Shown here: positions 40,246 through 64,000 of the stretch, one piece after another
Layout: every line of letters begins with the position of its first letter
Position numbering within the stretch: position 1 is the first letter of the stretch
Assembly (NCBI GenBank): GCA_963781805.1
Contig: CAWAHF010000004.1
Location: 1,774,219-1,838,218, forward strand
DNA from: an uncultured Bacteroidales bacterium
GTDB taxonomy: Bacteria > Bacteroidota > Bacteroidia > Bacteroidales > UBA10428
Length of the DNA stretch: 64,000 bases
Reading direction: 5' to 3'
Notes under the pieces: generated by a model
Seen by the model: the letters and a program-made list of their open reading frames with translations, nothing else
The model's database searches: none
What the model was told of the DNA's origin: nothing
Position numbers and translations under genes: made by a program

Positions 40246-40394
40246 GTCACCCTGAACTCCTGCCTGGCTGGCCTCGGCAGACAGGTGATTCAGGGTCTTT
40301 GGAAAATTAAGGAGATTAGCTTCGCGCTGAGCCTTTCAGGGTTCCGAATTACCTACCCGCCGCTTAAGCTTTGTCAGGCGGGAGTCCGGAATGA
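40246..40394. repeat. Convergent pair of REP-like palindromes, each with a nested hairpin insert
   Basis: GTCACCCTGAACT[27 bp]TGATTCAGGGTCT and TTCCGAATT[ACCTACCCGCC...GGCGGG]AGTCCGGAATGA. Confidence 0.65.
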
Positions 40395-53266: not shown

Positions 53267-54787
53267 ATGAAAGTAAGGAAAGATATGTCAGAACGAAGTG
53301 CAGGTATACTGATGCACATTACTTCGCTTCCCGGAAAATTCGAAATAGGAGATTTTGGCCCCGAAGCATATCGATTTGCAGATTTTCTTAAAAATCATGA
53401 TCAAAAATACTGGCAAATGTTGCCGCTAAACCAGGTTTACAGGGATGGCGGCTATTCCCCATACAGTTCGCTGTCTGCATTCGCAGGAAACATCTACCTC
53501 ATCAGTCCTGAATTGCTGCTGGAACAGAATCTGATAACTGAATTACCTGTTGGTAACAAGCTCCATACCTCCGACAAAGTGCATTATGAACGAATAGTGC
53601 AAATAAAAGAGACCGTCATTGATGAAGTATATAAAAATTTCAAAACAAGGCCGTTCAATACCCTAGCCAGAAATTTCGAAGAATTTTGCGAAAAAGAGGC
53701 TTTTTGGCTAAATGATTATGCGCTATTCGTATATCTGAAGAAAACACAGGGTATGATTCCCTGGAATGACTGGCCGGCCGAATTCCGCGACCGGGACGAA
53801 AGGGTTATGAAAATGGTGGTTAAGGAAAATGCCGATAAAATTGAACGTGAAAAATTTGCCCAGTTTTTGTTTTTATACCAATGGAAAGAGCTAAAATCAT
53901 ACTGCAATTCCAGGGAAATAAAAATTTTCGGCGATATTCCTATTTATGTCAATTACGACAGTGCGGATGTATGGTCGCACCCTGAATTATTTAAGCTCGA
54001 TAAAAACAGGATGAAGTTGGCAGTCTCAGGTGTTCCGCCCGATTATTTCAGCAAAGAGGGTCAGCTTTGGGGAATGCCAGTGTTCAATTGGGCCGTGATG
54101 AAGAAGGATGGCTATTCCTGGTGGATCGACCGTATCAAAAAAAACCTGGAACTGTTTGACCTGCTGCGGCTCGATCATTTCAGGGGATTTTCAACTTTCT
54201 GGGAAGTCCCGGTAAGTGAAAAAACTGCGGTAAACGGAACATGGATAAAGGGTCCGGGCGCCGACTTTTTCAATGCACTTAAAAAAGTATTTCCTGAAAT
54301 GCCGTTTGTGGCTGAGGACCTGGGGGATGTAGATCAACCTGTTTATGATCTTCGCGATAAATTCAAATTACCTGGAATGAGGGTACTTCAGTTTGCTTTT
54401 GGAAAAAACTTTGAAAAATCACATCATATTCCACACAATCATACTTACAACAGTGTAGTTTATACCGGCACACACGACAATAACACCACCAGGGGATGGT
54501 TTATGAACGAAACAGGTAAAATGCAACGTAAACACCTGAAAAGTTATATTGGTAAAAAGATACATAAAAGAAACTGTCATTGGCAGCTCATCCGAATGAC
54601 ATACGCTTCAGTAGCAAAACTGGCAATAATCCCAATTCAGGATTTCATGGGCATGGGGGCAGAAGCACGAATGAATATCCCTTCTACAGAAAATCACAAT
54701 TGGTTGTGGCGTTTATCTGAAAAATATCTGACGCCAGGCATCAAACGAAAAATTAAAAAACTTGTGAAGACATATGGGAGAGGGTAA
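53267..54787 (+). CDS. malQ: 4-alpha-glucanotransferase (GH77)
   Basis: GILMHITSLP, GVPPDYFS, LRLDHFRGF, AEDLG, YTGTHDN. Confidence 0.95.
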   Translation: MKVRKDMSERSAGILMHITSLPGKFEIGDFGPEAYRFADFLKNHDQKYWQMLPLNQVYRDGGYSPYSSLSAFAGNIYLISPELLLEQNLITELPVGNKLHTSDKVHYERIVQIKETVIDEVYKNFKTRPFNTLARNFEEFCEKEAFWLNDYALFVYLKKTQGMIPWNDWPAEFRDRDERVMKMVVKENADKIEREKFAQFLFLYQWKELKSYCNSREIKIFGDIPIYVNYDSADVWSHPELFKLDKNRMKLAVSGVPPDYFSKEGQLWGMPVFNWAVMKKDGYSWWIDRIKKNLELFDLLRLDHFRGFSTFWEVPVSEKTAVNGTWIKGPGADFFNALKKVFPEMPFVAEDLGDVDQPVYDLRDKFKLPGMRVLQFAFGKNFEKSHHIPHNHTYNSVVYTGTHDNNTTRGWFMNETGKMQRKHLKSYIGKKIHKRNCHWQLIRMTYASVAKLAIIPIQDFMGMGAEARMNIPSTENHNWLWRLSEKYLTPGIKRKIKKLVKTYGRG

Positions 54788-54841
54788 AGTTCTGTCTGTC
54801 TGTTTTTTCAAAACAAAAAAGTTGGCATGGATATACGTTTT

Positions 54842-55078
54842 TTAAACCAAATGTTTATTTCGAAAAGCGATACCAGATCCTGATTTGAGGTATTTTTCAA
54901 ATTCAAATGCTCTATACTTATCTGAGAACGTGATAAAAGTTATTAATTCAACTGGGAGTTTATCCTTGGTATAATGAACCTGACCATTTTTGTGTCTGAT
55001 TATTCTATCGTCTAGGTTGTTGGTGCAACCTGTGTAATATGTCTCGTCTTTGCATCTTAAAATATAAACATACCACAT
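54842..55078 (-). CDS. Stand-alone GIY-YIG nuclease (78 aa)
   Basis: YVYIL...YYTGCTNNLDDRIIRH...EKYLKSGSG. Confidence 0.9.
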   Translation of the reverse strand: MWYVYILRCKDETYYTGCTNNLDDRIIRHKNGQVHYTKDKLPVELITFITFSDKYRAFEFEKYLKSGSGIAFRNKHLV

Positions 55079-55098
55079 AATTATGTACTGAGTAATAG

Positions 55099-55266
55099 GT
55101 GGACTGTGTCCACACGCTGTTGCTGAAGCTCACCTCCGCATAAAGCTTCGGTGAATAGTGGACTGCGTCCACCGTAGCTCACCGAAGATTTAAGATAAAT
55201 ACTAAAATTATATTTATAGCTCATTAATATAGACGAAGCTCACCTCCGCATAAAGCTTCGGTGAGC
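55099..55266. repeat. Cluster of REP-like hairpins between ssrA and GIY-YIG
   Basis: Identical 30-mers GAAGCTCACCTCCGCATAAAGCTTCGGTGA at 55125 and 55235; GTGGAC-N3-GTCCAC at 55099 and 55158; inverted partial copy at 55177-55187. Confidence 0.85.
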
Positions 55267-55269
55267 GAA

Positions 55270-55668
55270 GGTGGAGCTGCCGGGAGTCGAACCCGGGTCC
55301 AAACAGGAAACCCATAAGATTTCTACATGCTTAGTTTATTATTGATTTTCGTGAACAGGCCGGGAACAAACACCCAATCTGAACCTTATCCCCTGTTGTT
55401 TCGCCTGGTTATCGGGGTATTTACCAAGACTATCCCTGTTTTCGTGTGCCTCTTAATCCTGTCCCTCAAGGAGTAGGTACCGGAGAAGCAGCCTGTTCCG
55501 ATCACCTTGAACCGGAATTACGCCATAATCTACTGTTATTCGATTAGGCAGCAAGCGCGTAATTTGTTTCGCCACTTAATGTTTTGCACCGCAGTTTAAC
55601 GGGTTACTGTGCGTTGCCCGGCATGCTTGCTTACCTGTTTATCCTGCTGTCAAATCCATTTCAACCCC
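55270..55668 (-). ncRNA. ssrA: tmRNA
   Basis: 5' GGGGTTGAAATGGATTTGAC; 3' GGGTTCGACTCCCGGCAGCTCCACC; tag ORF at 55573-55544 = GETNYALAA*; -7 element TAATTTTG at 55688-55681. Confidence 0.96.
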
Positions 55669-55873
55669 ATAAGCAATGTGCAAAATTACTAAAATCAAAC
55701 CATATCCGGGCGTATTCATCGATAAATCTTGTTATATAGAAATAAGAATTACTTATGTTTGGCGGATTCAATGAAATGCTGAAAAGTATTTATTTAACAT
55801 GTTTTTAAGAAATTAATTGAACTTTTTTCCTATAAAAGACGTTACCTTTACTCTGACAGAAAAATTATTCAGT

Positions 55874-62146: not shown

Positions 62147-64000
62147 ATGAAAACGAAAATAAATTTTAATAAGCGCGATTATAAAATTATTGGAATTACC
62201 TTAATTGCAGGTCTTTTTTTGGGTTGGTTGATATTTCATGGTTCAAAAAATGAAGCTGTGGCTGAGCAGACATCCCGGGAACTCACCAATGAAAATAAAA
62301 TGATCTGGACATGTTCGATGCATCCACAGATACGAATGGACCATCCCGGTAAATGTCCGATATGCGGCATGGATTTAATTCCACTTCAGCAATACAAGAG
62401 TGACGAATCCGAAATTTCACCTGATGAAATAGAGATGACGAATGCTGCAATGAAAATTGCAGATATACAAACCATAATTGTTAAACGGGCATATCCCGAC
62501 AAAGAAGTCTACCTGCTGGGCAAAATCAAGCCGGATGAACGGAATATAGCCGAGTTGACTGCGCGGTTCGGAGGACGTATTGAAAAACTATTTGTGAATT
62601 TTACCGGACAGCATGTGGCAAAGGGTGAGAAACTTGCAGTGATTTATTCTCCTGCACTTATCACAGCGCAAAAAGAATTGCTCGAAGCGGAGGAATACAA
62701 ATTAAGCAATCCGGACTTGTATAAAGCTGCACGGGGCAAATTGAAGCTTTGGAATCTGTCGGATGATCAGATTGATAACATTGAAACGAAAGGGGAAGTA
62801 CAAAATAATTTTGACGTACTTTCTCCTATCAGGGGAACTGTAACCCGCCGCAATGTGGCAATTGGAGATTACATAAAAGAAGGCACTTCTTTATTCCAGG
62901 TGATAGATCTGAAAAAAGTCTGGGTGATGTTTGAAGCTTATGAAAGCGATCTTCCCTGGATTGGATTAGGAGACAAAGTTGATTTTTCGGTTCAATCGCT
63001 GCCCGGTAAAGCCTTCAGCGGACATGTAAGTTTCATAGATCCGGTTATTGATCCTAAAACCAGGATCGCACAGGTGAGGGTTGAAGTTCAGAATCCCGGT
63101 CTTAGCCTGAAACCTGAAATGTTTGCCAATGGTACCGTAATATCCACAATTGCAGGAAACAAAAAAGACCTTATGATACCAAAGACAGCTGTACTTTGGA
63201 CAGGAAAACGTGCAGTGGTTTATGTAAAAGTTCCCGGAAAGGTACAACCGACCTTTAAATACAGGGAAATTATTCTGGGCCCTTTAGCAGGTGAATTTTA
63301 TGTGGTAAATAAAGGCTTGCAGGAAGGGGAAGAAATAGCAGTTAACGGCGTATTTAAGATTGATGCTGCTTCCCAACTGGCAGGAAAACCAAGTATGATG
63401 AATCCATCCTACGCCAATGCTTCGGATGGCAAGATTGAAGGCGGTGCCGGATCTGCGGGAAGTATGCCCGGAATGGATTTGGGCAGTACGTCCGCTAAGG
63501 AAAATCCTGTTACCTCTGAAACCAAACAGGTTACCGATATTAAAAAAAATGACAGGGTCTATATAAAGAGTAAAAAGAATGAAATAGATCCTCAGTTCAA
63601 ACAACAACTTACTGAAGTATATAAAACTTATCTACCCATGAAAAATGCGTTTATTAAATCTGATCCGAAGGAAGTAACTGAAATAGCCTTAAAAATTGTT
63701 AAAACGCTGAACAAAGTGAACATGGAACTGTTAGAAGGTGAGACACATATGGTTTGGATGAATCAGCTGAAAGAACTGGATAAAAGTCTGAAAAAGATGT
63801 CGCAAAGCGCTGATATCGCCGAACAACGTGAAGCATTTGCTGCATTTAACCTCACTTTTTATCAATCGGTAAAAGACTTTGGACTGGAAGGTGTGACCAC
63901 CTATTACCAATACTGTCCGATGGCTGTAGAACAAAAAGGAGCATACTGGTTCAGTGAAAACAAGGAAATAAAAAATCCCTATTTCGGAGATGCAATGCTG
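62147..64000 (+). CDS. cusB: CusB-like RND periplasmic adaptor with heavy-metal-binding and DUF3347-like domains (truncated by window edge)
   Basis: Manual translation from ATG 62147, open to the edge: WTCSMHPQIRMDHPGKCPICGMDL, GRIEKL, LKPEMFA, YYQYCPMA...NPYFGDAML. Confidence 0.9.
   Translation, partial: MKTKINFNKRDYKIIGITLIAGLFLGWLIFHGSKNEAVAEQTSRELTNENKMIWTCSMHPQIRMDHPGKCPICGMDLIPLQQYKSDESEISPDEIEMTNAAMKIADIQTIIVKRAYPDKEVYLLGKIKPDERNIAELTARFGGRIEKLFVNFTGQHVAKGEKLAVIYSPALITAQKELLEAEEYKLSNPDLYKAARGKLKLWNLSDDQIDNIETKGEVQNNFDVLSPIRGTVTRRNVAIGDYIKEGTSLFQVIDLKKVWVMFEAYESDLPWIGLGDKVDFSVQSLPGKAFSGHVSFIDPVIDPKTRIAQVRVEVQNPGLSLKPEMFANGTVISTIAGNKKDLMIPKTAVLWTGKRAVVYVKVPGKVQPTFKYREIILGPLAGEFYVVNKGLQEGEEIAVNGVFKIDAASQLAGKPSMMNPSYANASDGKIEGGAGSAGSMPGMDLGSTSAKENPVTSETKQVTDIKKNDRVYIKSKKNEIDPQFKQQLTEVYKTYLPMKNAFIKSDPKEVTEIALKIVKTLNKVNMELLEGETHMVWMNQLKELDKSLKKMSQSADIAEQREAFAAFNLTFYQSVKDFGLEGVTTYYQYCPMAVEQKGAYWFSENKEIKNPYFGDAML

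Follow-up and report, generated by a model that had tools for sequence, protein, structure and literature searches.

Among the published systems in which a small GIY-YIG nuclease is combined with hairpin repeats, the one closest to the locus described here is Ssn (repeats of the SRM/NTS type, SRM standing for the Ssn recognition motif), a set of single-domain GIY-YIG proteins of about 94 amino acids (aa), the genes of which have flanking hairpin repeats (Chenal et al. 2025; PMC11893778). The Ssn proteins bind the hairpin and cut the adjacent single-stranded DNA (ssDNA) site-specifically, with no cleavage of double-stranded DNA or RNA, and the usefulness of such enzymes as tools has already been demonstrated; SsnA of Neisseria meningitidis is reported to modulate natural transformation via its hairpin repeats (PMC11893778). 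In bacteriophage T4, the GIY-YIG endonuclease SegB, which is encoded in a tRNA gene cluster, drives segmental amplification (PMC13096335). Here, we analyze a stretch of 64,000 nucleotides (nt), referred to at its full length as the window, from the genome of an uncultured Bacteroidales bacterium (contig CAWAHF010000004.1; the genome comprises 6.31 Mb in 4 contigs), in which a hairpin-rich leader and the gene for a 78-aa GIY-YIG nuclease lie directly behind the transfer-messenger RNA (tmRNA) gene, ssrA. We consider it rather likely that the locus represents a cassette of low copy number with tRNA and tmRNA 3' ends as its docking sites, the copy at this site having a partly duplicated leader.

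The leader and its match to the host gene end

From the tmRNA gene onwards, the locus is arranged as follows.

55270 to 55668, minus strand: tmRNA gene (ssrA), tag GETNYALAA; its 3' end, ...CAGCTCCACC, is the putative docking point of the cassette (ARAGORN; Rfam RF00023, 152.9 bits)
55266 to 55269, minus strand: junction motif TTCG, immediately 3' of the last C of the tmRNA; conserved start of the leader (T[TC][CT]G in almost all relatives, with 49 loci that have a canonical junction)
55238 to 55266, minus strand: hairpin A copy 1, GCTCACC-GAAGC-TTTAT-GCGGA-GGTGAGC, in the first 30-mer (sequence repeats; pairing kept in relatives)
55193 to 55237, minus strand: AT-rich spacer of leader unit 1, 45 nt, containing TAATTTTA (a near match to the Bacteroidota -7 motif TAnnTTTG)
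55168 to 55192, minus strand: segment M2, an inverted copy of the junction, that is, of the tmRNA end TCCACC, TTC and the start of hairpin A (inverted repeat)
55158 to 55172, minus strand: hairpin B copy 1, GTGGAC-GCA-GTCCAC, its 3' arm repeating the terminal TCCAC of the tmRNA (sequence; target matching in relatives)
55125 to 55154, minus strand: second 30-mer, hairpin A copy 2, with the 5' arm shortened to TCACC (sequence repeats)
55098 to 55113, minus strand: hairpin B copy 2, GGTGGAC-ACA-GTCCACC, its 3' arm TCCACC identical to the tmRNA end (sequence)
54842 to 55078, minus strand: gene for a 78-aa single-domain GIY-YIG nuclease, Slx1/UPF0213-like, co-oriented with the tmRNA gene (Pfam PF01541, E=1.6e-14)

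The leader, about 110 nt in length, begins exactly at the tmRNA 3' end and leads into the GIY-YIG gene, hairpin B copy 2 ending 19 nt upstream of the start codon. The components that a preliminary description of the locus had picked out from the nucleotide sequence were for the most part recovered, namely, the two identical 30-mers (55125-55154 and 55235-55264), the two GTGGAC-N3-GTCCAC hairpins (55099-55113 and 55158-55172; 2 occurrences, compared with an expectation of 0.01 from shuffles of the window), the inverted partial copy and the co-oriented nuclease gene. The inverted copy is a 25-nt inverted repeat (55168-55192 with 55251-55275, 88% complementary) that takes in the terminal TCCACC of the tmRNA; M2, read on the minus strand from 55192 to 55168, is thus the inverted copy of TCCACC TTC GCTCACCGAAGCTTTA, with the central TAC/TTC unpaired. 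Both 30-mers had been proposed to form GCTCACC...GGTGAGC hairpins, and this holds for the copy at 55235, which has the full 7-bp stem (55238-55266; arms GCTCACC-GAAGCTTTATGCGGA-GGTGAGC, with a symmetric G(A/T)A internal loop and a variable tip), but not for the copy at 55125, which is truncated at the end nearest to the tmRNA and so retains only a 5-bp arm (GGTGA). The repeats of this locus are one full leader unit and a truncated duplicate, which opens with hairpin A copy 2 and contains neither the spacer nor M2.

The evidence that carries our interpretation comes from the comparison of leaders across relatives. A scan of one genome per species brought up 556 relatives of the nuclease, and the loci compared here are those of the best 80 (55-79% identity). 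Nearly all leaders begin with T(T/C)(C/T)G right after the ...CC of the host gene. The final 5 nt of the host gene recur in the 3' arm of hairpin B in 50 of 62 leaders, whereas in a permuted control, with the tails swapped between loci, a mean of 4.1 and a maximum of 9 leaders matched in 1000 trials. The likeness between the hairpin at 55098-55113, which ends in TCCACC on the minus strand, and the tmRNA end, already pointed out in the preliminary description, is hence systematic rather than a chance resemblance. Segment M2 can be written as three parts, namely, the first four bases of hairpin A in reverse complement, T(T/A)C and the final six bases of the host gene, likewise in reverse complement; 44 of the 49 leaders with a canonical junction obey this rule when up to 3 mismatches over 13 nt are tolerated. 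Among the copied ends are TCCACC (tmRNA, Ala, Arg), TCCGCC (Ser, Asp), CCCACC (Val, Tyr, Met), CCCGAC (Pro) and CCTGCC (Trp), and hairpin B changes with the host gene, for example:

tmRNA and tRNA-Ala, end CTCCACC: hairpin B GGTGGAG-AAA-CTCCACC
tRNA-Ser, end CTCCGCC: hairpin B GGCGGAC-ACA-GTCCGCC
tRNA-Pro, end CCCCGAC: hairpin B GTCGGGG-CAA-GCCCGAC
tRNA-Trp, end CCCTGCC: hairpin B GGCAGGC-AAA-GCCTGC

Hairpin A follows the consensus GCYCNCC-G(A/T)AGC-(variable tip)-GCG(A/T)A-GGNGRGC, in which the tip varies in length but retains pairing. Over 21 distinct stems, its pairs comprise 247 Watson-Crick, 9 G-T, 3 C-A and 1 other, so the stem has been kept by compensatory change. A T-run follows hairpin A in 23 of 32 Bacteroidota leaders and, in a weak form, in this window; therefore, hairpin A probably terminates transcription of the host tRNA or tmRNA gene in most of the Bacteroidota relatives, as judged from the nucleotide sequence. 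Further downstream, about half of these 32 leaders contain the motif TAnnTTT(G/A). Because TAATTTTA comes close to the -7 motif, the spacer may hold the promoter of the nuclease gene; a sigma-70 promoter and terminator scan, the model of which does not cover Bacteroidota promoters, gave nothing useful.

The nuclease itself matches the Pfam GIY-YIG domain at 54.4 bits, against a cut-off of 22.6, over residues 1-66 of its 78 residues, and a profile search matches it to the UPF0213 protein BH0048 (PDB 1zg2; E=2e-17). The AlphaFold model (pLDDT 97.2) has the minimal GIY-YIG fold, and Foldseek matches it to UPF0213 BH0048 and to Slx1 nuclease domains, with a query-normalised TM-score of about 0.7 to the latter. 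In 75 homologues, which show a mean column identity of 69% across phyla, Y5, Y15, H29 and E61 are invariant and R25 nearly so, such that the predicted catalytic residues are intact; C9 and C18 are conserved as well, and the C-terminal signature of the subfamily, EKYLKSGSG, is invariant in the form EKY-K-GSG. At 78 aa, the protein consists of the catalytic core and has no space for an additional DNA-binding domain. No NCBIfam family covers the 78-aa protein.

Distribution, mobility and possible mode of action

Small GIY-YIG genes and their palindromes belong together and are tied to tRNA and tmRNA 3' ends across Bacteroidota and beyond, which bears out a conjecture of the preliminary description. 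In 63 of the best 80 homologues, a co-oriented tRNA or tmRNA gene lies within 600 nt upstream, compared with an estimated chance expectation of less than 0.5% (44 such genes x 600 nt in 6.3 Mb), and in most of the other loci the leader is preceded by a 3' fragment of a tRNA or tmRNA gene or by a tRNA that had escaped detection. These 80 homologues come from all major orders of Bacteroidota, many Patescibacteria and a few bins labelled Gammaproteobacteria; the genes most often found upstream of them are those for tmRNA and tRNA-Ser, and next those for the tRNAs of Ala, Val, Pro, Arg, Thr, Trp, Tyr, Met and Asp. Altogether, the module is found behind at least 12 kinds of tRNA and tmRNA gene in Bacteroidota and Patescibacteria, with housekeeping genes right beside it. 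In 40 closely related genomes (labelled G0xx), there are 31 small GIY-YIG loci, 17 of which lie no more than 1.5 kb from a tRNA or tmRNA gene, and the homologues are often located 37-160 nt behind a co-oriented one. The hosts are tRNA-Ser(CGA) in two genomes of the same genus and in G017 of the same family, and tmRNA in G035, and in G011, also of the same family, tRNA-Ser(CGA) lies just after the GIY-YIG gene, at the start of a contig; tRNA-Pro, tRNA-Met and tRNA-Val are hosts of a second short GIY-YIG subfamily. None of the 100-120-aa GIY-YIG relatives in the same sampled genomes is located beside a tRNA gene. Among phages and plasmids, only matches below 43% identity were detected, so the cassette does not carry a known phage or plasmid gene. 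An Rfam search, suggested along with the preliminary description, yielded no family for the element: in the window stretch only the tmRNA scored above threshold (next to two sub-threshold matches at chance level), and on 20 related loci nothing did except tRNA and tmRNA. We found no description of a link between a GIY-YIG gene and tRNA or tmRNA ends in the literature outside subscription journals.

Occupancy of the target sites is patchy. Only 3 of the 30 tmRNA genes of relatives are occupied, those of this genome, G033 and G035, which belong to three different families; in three genomes of the same genus, the tmRNA reads ...CTCCAC followed directly by AAAA..., and similarity to this genome breaks off precisely where the tmRNA ends. 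The reverse is seen at tRNA-Ser(CGA), which has a unit in two genomes of the genus but not in this one. In G001, a full unit lies on each side of the gene; in G035, the genes are followed by TCCGCC and a unit ending in GTCCGC, that is, by a Ser-type unit in a tmRNA locus; leader units are stacked in tandem at many loci; and decayed copies exist, namely, a gene with a stop codon in G002 and a second copy in G035. The protein tree, which is poorly resolved because it is built on only 78 columns, requires at least 29 changes of host-gene type, and it places the protein of the window beside (100/86) a protein from a tRNA-Ala(GGC) locus, where the gene end is again CTCCACC. These signs support well, though indirectly, a cassette that is probably selfish and that is, or until recently was, mobile.

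By analogy, the cassette can be treated as working like the Ssn system, with no claim of membership in the Ssn family. The nuclease would then act on the leader hairpins as single-stranded DNA, as the Ssn nucleases do on their flanking hairpins, with a predicted cut at or near the junction between the tmRNA gene and the leader, and the target would be set by nucleic-acid pairing or mimicry, through M2 and hairpin B, rather than by a protein domain. Conceivably, although this proposal is tentative, the leader is an exchangeable address label in which M2 and hairpin B, the complement and the copy of the last 5-7 nt, direct the nuclease in ssDNA by pairing or mimicry, so that a few base changes in a hairpin would switch the target; the cassette would then represent a new class of mobile elements of about 0.4 kb at tRNA and tmRNA ends, a GIY-YIG equivalent of guide-directed targeting in IS200/IS605. 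Tiny stand-alone GIY-YIG genes number in the thousands and are annotated merely as 'GIY-YIG nuclease family protein', and one large subfamily of these, in Bacteroidota and bacteria of the candidate phyla radiation, turns out to be non-randomly placed, being bound to tRNA and tmRNA ends together with a structured element that copies the target. If the nuclease reads the hairpin, this would explain site specificity without a DNA-binding domain, reveal a new kind of occupant at the best-known integration hot spots of bacteria and, possibly, offer small ssDNA nucleases the site of which is set by a short hairpin. For annotation, the repeats of the cassette are easily mistaken for repetitive extragenic palindromes (REPs), attachment (att) scars or terminators.

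Several observations weigh against this scheme. Across the 62 leaders, C-A on the sense strand predominates among the mismatches of M2 with the host end (15, compared with 3 G-T), so simple sense-strand pairing fails as an explanation. A sense-strand C-A is a G-T on the other strand, and the bottom strand may be the folded one at M2; alternatively, the mismatches may stem from a recent move of elements from Ser-type to Ala/tmRNA-type ends, and it may be that M2 and hairpin A, the two parts of the leader, are not read on the same strand. No pair of a filled and an empty site showed conservation on both sides, the far flanks in the same genus being non-syntenic, so the same-genus genomes did not define the right-hand boundary of the cassette. 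Clean re-insertion at a regenerated TCCRCC target was considered as the source of the stacked units and rejected: the second units begin at varying points within hairpin A, and slippage or break repair therefore fits better. GIY-YIG enzymes hydrolyse DNA and do not join strands, so the insertion step is missing from the model. The strong conservation of the protein would also fit a host function. Finally, the SRM is absent: the SRM/NTS motif HGTCWYN(0-2)YYVSBRHN(0-5)WNVSBRGN(0-2)RNCYNB has no match in window positions 54301-55800 and none within 500 nt at any of the 80 loci (1 of 80 after shuffling).

A host function could be envisaged in two ways. First, the leader might be a 3' trailer co-transcribed with the tRNA or tmRNA, in which M2 pairs with the precursor 3' end and the nuclease or host RNases mature or control that end, the gene thus serving the host. 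Such an RNA-level module would be in keeping with the start of the leader exactly at the mature 3' end, with the covariation, which shows selection on a folded single strand, with the non-Watson-Crick pairs of hairpin A, mostly G-T on the sense strand (9 against 3 C-A), with the strongly conserved protein and with the folding of the 222-nt stretch, which is far better than that of shuffles (z = -5.6 as RNA and -5.5 as DNA). However, an essential maturation step would not come and go as this cassette does, being patchy in occurrence and differing in its partner gene between close relatives; in the 23 Bacteroidota leaders with a T-run, a terminator-like hairpin A precedes M2 and hairpin B; M2 mismatches the host end by C-A on the sense strand; pseudogene copies occur; and the characterised relative SsnA is inactive on RNA (PMC11893778). 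On balance, we regard an RNA-level role as improbable.

Second, the nuclease could be a guard recruited by the host that cuts single-stranded copies of tRNA or tmRNA ends on invaders (attP, transforming or conjugating DNA) and so modulates integration or transformation at these hot spots. The strong purifying selection on the protein and the position of the cassette on favoured att sites, with a mimic of the att core on board, are compatible with this possibility, as is the reported modulation of natural transformation by SsnA via hairpin repeats (PMC11893778). Yet, a sibling strain has a foreign element in its tmRNA end despite the cassette, and patchy distribution and decayed copies fit a parasite better, so that a guard appears slightly less plausible still than an RNA-level role.

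The sibling strain is represented by a metagenome contig (L148, JGI, 1317 bp) that aligns with window positions 54784-55483 and has an identical cassette and a malQ flank that is 99.9% identical. In place of the tmRNA body, 205 nt that are absent from this genome abut AGCTCCACC on its upstream side, so another element appears to be integrated at this tmRNA 3' end. It may thus be asked whether the repeats themselves are att remnants of integrase-driven islands at the tmRNA 3' end, the GIY-YIG gene being a passenger or a leftover gene of an island end. Ends of tRNA and tmRNA genes are classic integration sites, the sibling contig shows that this one is used by another element, and in about 20 of the 80 loci a tRNA or tmRNA 3' fragment, or a further leader, follows the gene. 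Nevertheless, neither in the cassette nor among the flanking genes (those for MalQ, GlgB, an RND efflux pump and a 145-aa protein without a Pfam match) is there an integrase, a transposase or an HUH enzyme; the identical design of leader and gene recurs behind 12 kinds of tRNA and tmRNA gene with housekeeping genes adjoining; the repeated tmRNA end in the window amounts to just 5-6 nt; and a scar would leave unexplained the two target-tracking hairpin arms, the complement in M2 and the covarying hairpin A. An origin of the repeats as integration scars is, accordingly, very unlikely.

Copies and related elements in the same genome

The preliminary description took the repeats for a REP-like array and proposed that the nuclease recognises or spreads the palindromes, in parallel to the modules of REPs and REP-associated tyrosine transposases (RAYTs). 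Hairpin-forming elements do lie beside a nuclease gene, and a strict hairpin-A-like motif, defined by a GC-rich stem of 6 bp enclosing G(A/T)AGC..GCG(A/T)A, has 9 occurrences in the genome, compared with 0-1 in shuffles. However, the 30-mer has just 2 copies in 6.3 Mb, both at this locus, even with up to 6 mismatches allowed; GTGGAC-N3-GTCCAC is found 3 times in the whole genome, the third instance lying directly behind the tRNA-Ala(TGC) of an rRNA operon; the strict junction pattern gives 7 matches in 41 genomes; some of the 9 dispersed motifs lie within coding sequence; and no HUH enzyme is encoded nearby. Whole units are confined to three places, the ends of the tmRNA, of the rRNA-operon tRNA-Ala(TGC) and of one pseudo-tRNA, all of which read TCCACC. 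Nothing shows that the nuclease multiplies palindromes and spreads them round the genome, and we give this idea hardly any credence. The gene of this GIY-YIG subfamily is present in a single copy.

A profile of seven units, used to search the genome, gave one strong match, to the window locus, and a few weak ones; it brought up the degenerate unit behind the pseudo-tRNA end at C4:2996241-2996326. The compact unit behind tRNA-Ala(TGC), TTCGTTCACTAAAATGAACTTCGGTGGACACAGTCCAC, had a weak profile score and was found via the tRNA trailers. At this site, in the spacer of the rRNA operon (C4:4299931-4300045), a gene-less compact leader consists of TTCG, a short hairpin and CTTCGGTGGAC-ACA-GTCCAC, and a second hairpin-A-like motif lies 70 nt downstream. 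Dispersed hairpin-A-like motifs are located at 63404-63429 of the window and at C4:5343523, 3766020, 3813589, 3920549 and 2201266; two of the dispersed copies have TCCACC/GGTGGA or TCCGCC/GGCGGA stems, and, by eye, at least 2 such motifs are within coding sequence (63404 of the window and C4:5343523, the latter in an apparent primase gene). The hairpin at 40356-40381, cited earlier as related, has a GC stem and an AAGCTTT loop, but it failed the strict hairpin-A pattern, so the likeness is loose: it reads CCCGCC-GCTTAAGCTTTGTCA-GGCGGG and lies inside another palindrome (TTCCGAATTAC...GTCCGGAATGAA).

Other structured elements accompany tRNA and tmRNA genes in this genome and its relatives. A different long palindromic trailer (AAAACAAAAAGCCC...GTTGAAAAT...GGGCTTTTTGTTTT) stands behind at least 7 tRNA genes, those for Ser (GCT, TGA, CGA), Pro(CGG), Cys, Asp and Val(GAC), for example, at C4:4653394-4653900; the one after tRNA-Ser(CGA) is a four-copy tandem array of about 130 nt that includes hairpins of the pseudo-anticodon-arm type. 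At C4:4683797-4685560, a tandem array ahead of the real tRNA-Val(TAC) comprises 14.4 copies (99% identical) of an 81-nt pseudo-tRNA-Val, in which the acceptor and D arm are real and the hairpin TCCCGAC-TGATAA-GTCGGGA takes the place of the anticodon arm. The real tRNA-Val(TAC) is followed by a terminator hairpin, an 89-aa GIY-YIG gene of the second short subfamily, the 3' part of a pseudo-tRNA and a duplicated hairpin and gene 5' end. In relatives, genes of this second subfamily (loci L022 in G020, L031 in G004, L023, L028 and L030) lie behind tRNA-Pro, tRNA-Met and tRNA-Val. Tandem sets of 3-4 copies are frequent, and every copy of the gene has a pseudo-tRNA after it, with GC-rich hairpins substituting for the D, anticodon or T arms; the hairpins within one such pseudo-tRNA share an identical stem, for example, CCCCGCC/GGCGGGG twice. 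The cassette-free tmRNA loci L038, L051, L052 and L062 (G019, G001, G014 and G017) have a long GT-rich palindrome followed by a small gene, the product of which starts with MFDFEKLEVY and presumably resembles the four-helix-bundle proteins of 23S rRNA intervening sequences. This would be another small gene that recurs behind tmRNA.

Comparison with known systems

The likeness to Ssn lies in a single-domain GIY-YIG protein of less than 100 aa, without a DNA-binding domain, and in a gene flanked by its own hairpin-forming repeats; with 78 aa and a domain over residues 1-66, the protein of the window is well within the size that defines Ssn (a single GIY-YIG domain, less than 150 aa). In contrast, Ssn repeats are dispersed in tens to hundreds of copies, whereas those of the cassette number 2-4 per genome; the hairpins that flank the cassette gene are of another kind; and the cassette is anchored on gene ends through a copy and a complement of the target end, whereas the Ssn paper never mentions tRNA or tmRNA (PMC11893778). 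The nearest solved relatives of the cassette protein are UPF0213 proteins.

The Seg proteins of T-even phages, SegB among them, provide a looser parallel, with GIY-YIG genes among or behind tRNA genes and a selfish inheritance that the cassette probably shares, and the nuclease-linked tandem amplification of neighbouring segments resembles the stacked leaders of the cassette. However, Seg proteins possess a C-terminal DNA-binding domain and cut double-stranded DNA, whereas the cassette protein is a bare 78-aa core, with I-TevI as a weak fold match only (E=1.5) and no counterpart of the C-terminal DNA-binding domain of Seg and I-TevI; moreover, the cassette is chromosomal, and Seg genes have no target-matched hairpin leader. 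With homing endonucleases in general, the cassette shares patchy presence at one fixed kind of site (3 of 30 tmRNA genes; 63 of 80 homologues).

IS608 has a short guide beside a hairpin that recognises the cleavage site by base pairing, and the potential pairing of M2 and hairpin B with the tRNA or tmRNA end recalls this guide. More broadly, the IS200/IS605 elements and REP/RAYT modules share with the cassette hairpins near the ends and, as is presumed for the cassette, insertion beside a short specific sequence. The differences are that HUH enzymes form a covalent intermediate, whereas the cassette GIY-YIG nuclease hydrolyses DNA, that the copy number of the cassette is very low and that its target is the end of a tRNA or tmRNA gene. 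Neither a dispersed palindrome nor a repeat-flanked HUH Y1 enzyme (TnpA_REP), the hallmarks of REP/RAYT, was found here, the adjacent gene being GIY-YIG.

Islands driven by tyrosine integrases use the same docking site as the cassette, likewise leave the 3' end of the host gene intact and may share with the cassette direct repeats of the gene end; in the window, such repeats are limited to TCCAC(C) inside hairpin B, whereas the fragments after the gene in about 20 of the 80 loci are longer. Unlike the islands, the cassette spans about 0.4 kb, has a hairpin with both arms matched to the target and occurs as the same module at many tRNA types; it contains no tyrosine or serine integrase, nor do the flanking genes encode one.

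At the level of the protein, the best sequence and fold matches are UPF0213 (BH0048, PDB 1zg2; EF2693, PDB 1ywl) and eukaryotic Slx1, with identical catalytic residues. The cassette subfamily differs in its smaller size and in an invariant C-terminal motif of its own, EKYLKSGSG, and Slx1 is further set apart by its requirement for Slx4 and by a zinc-finger domain.

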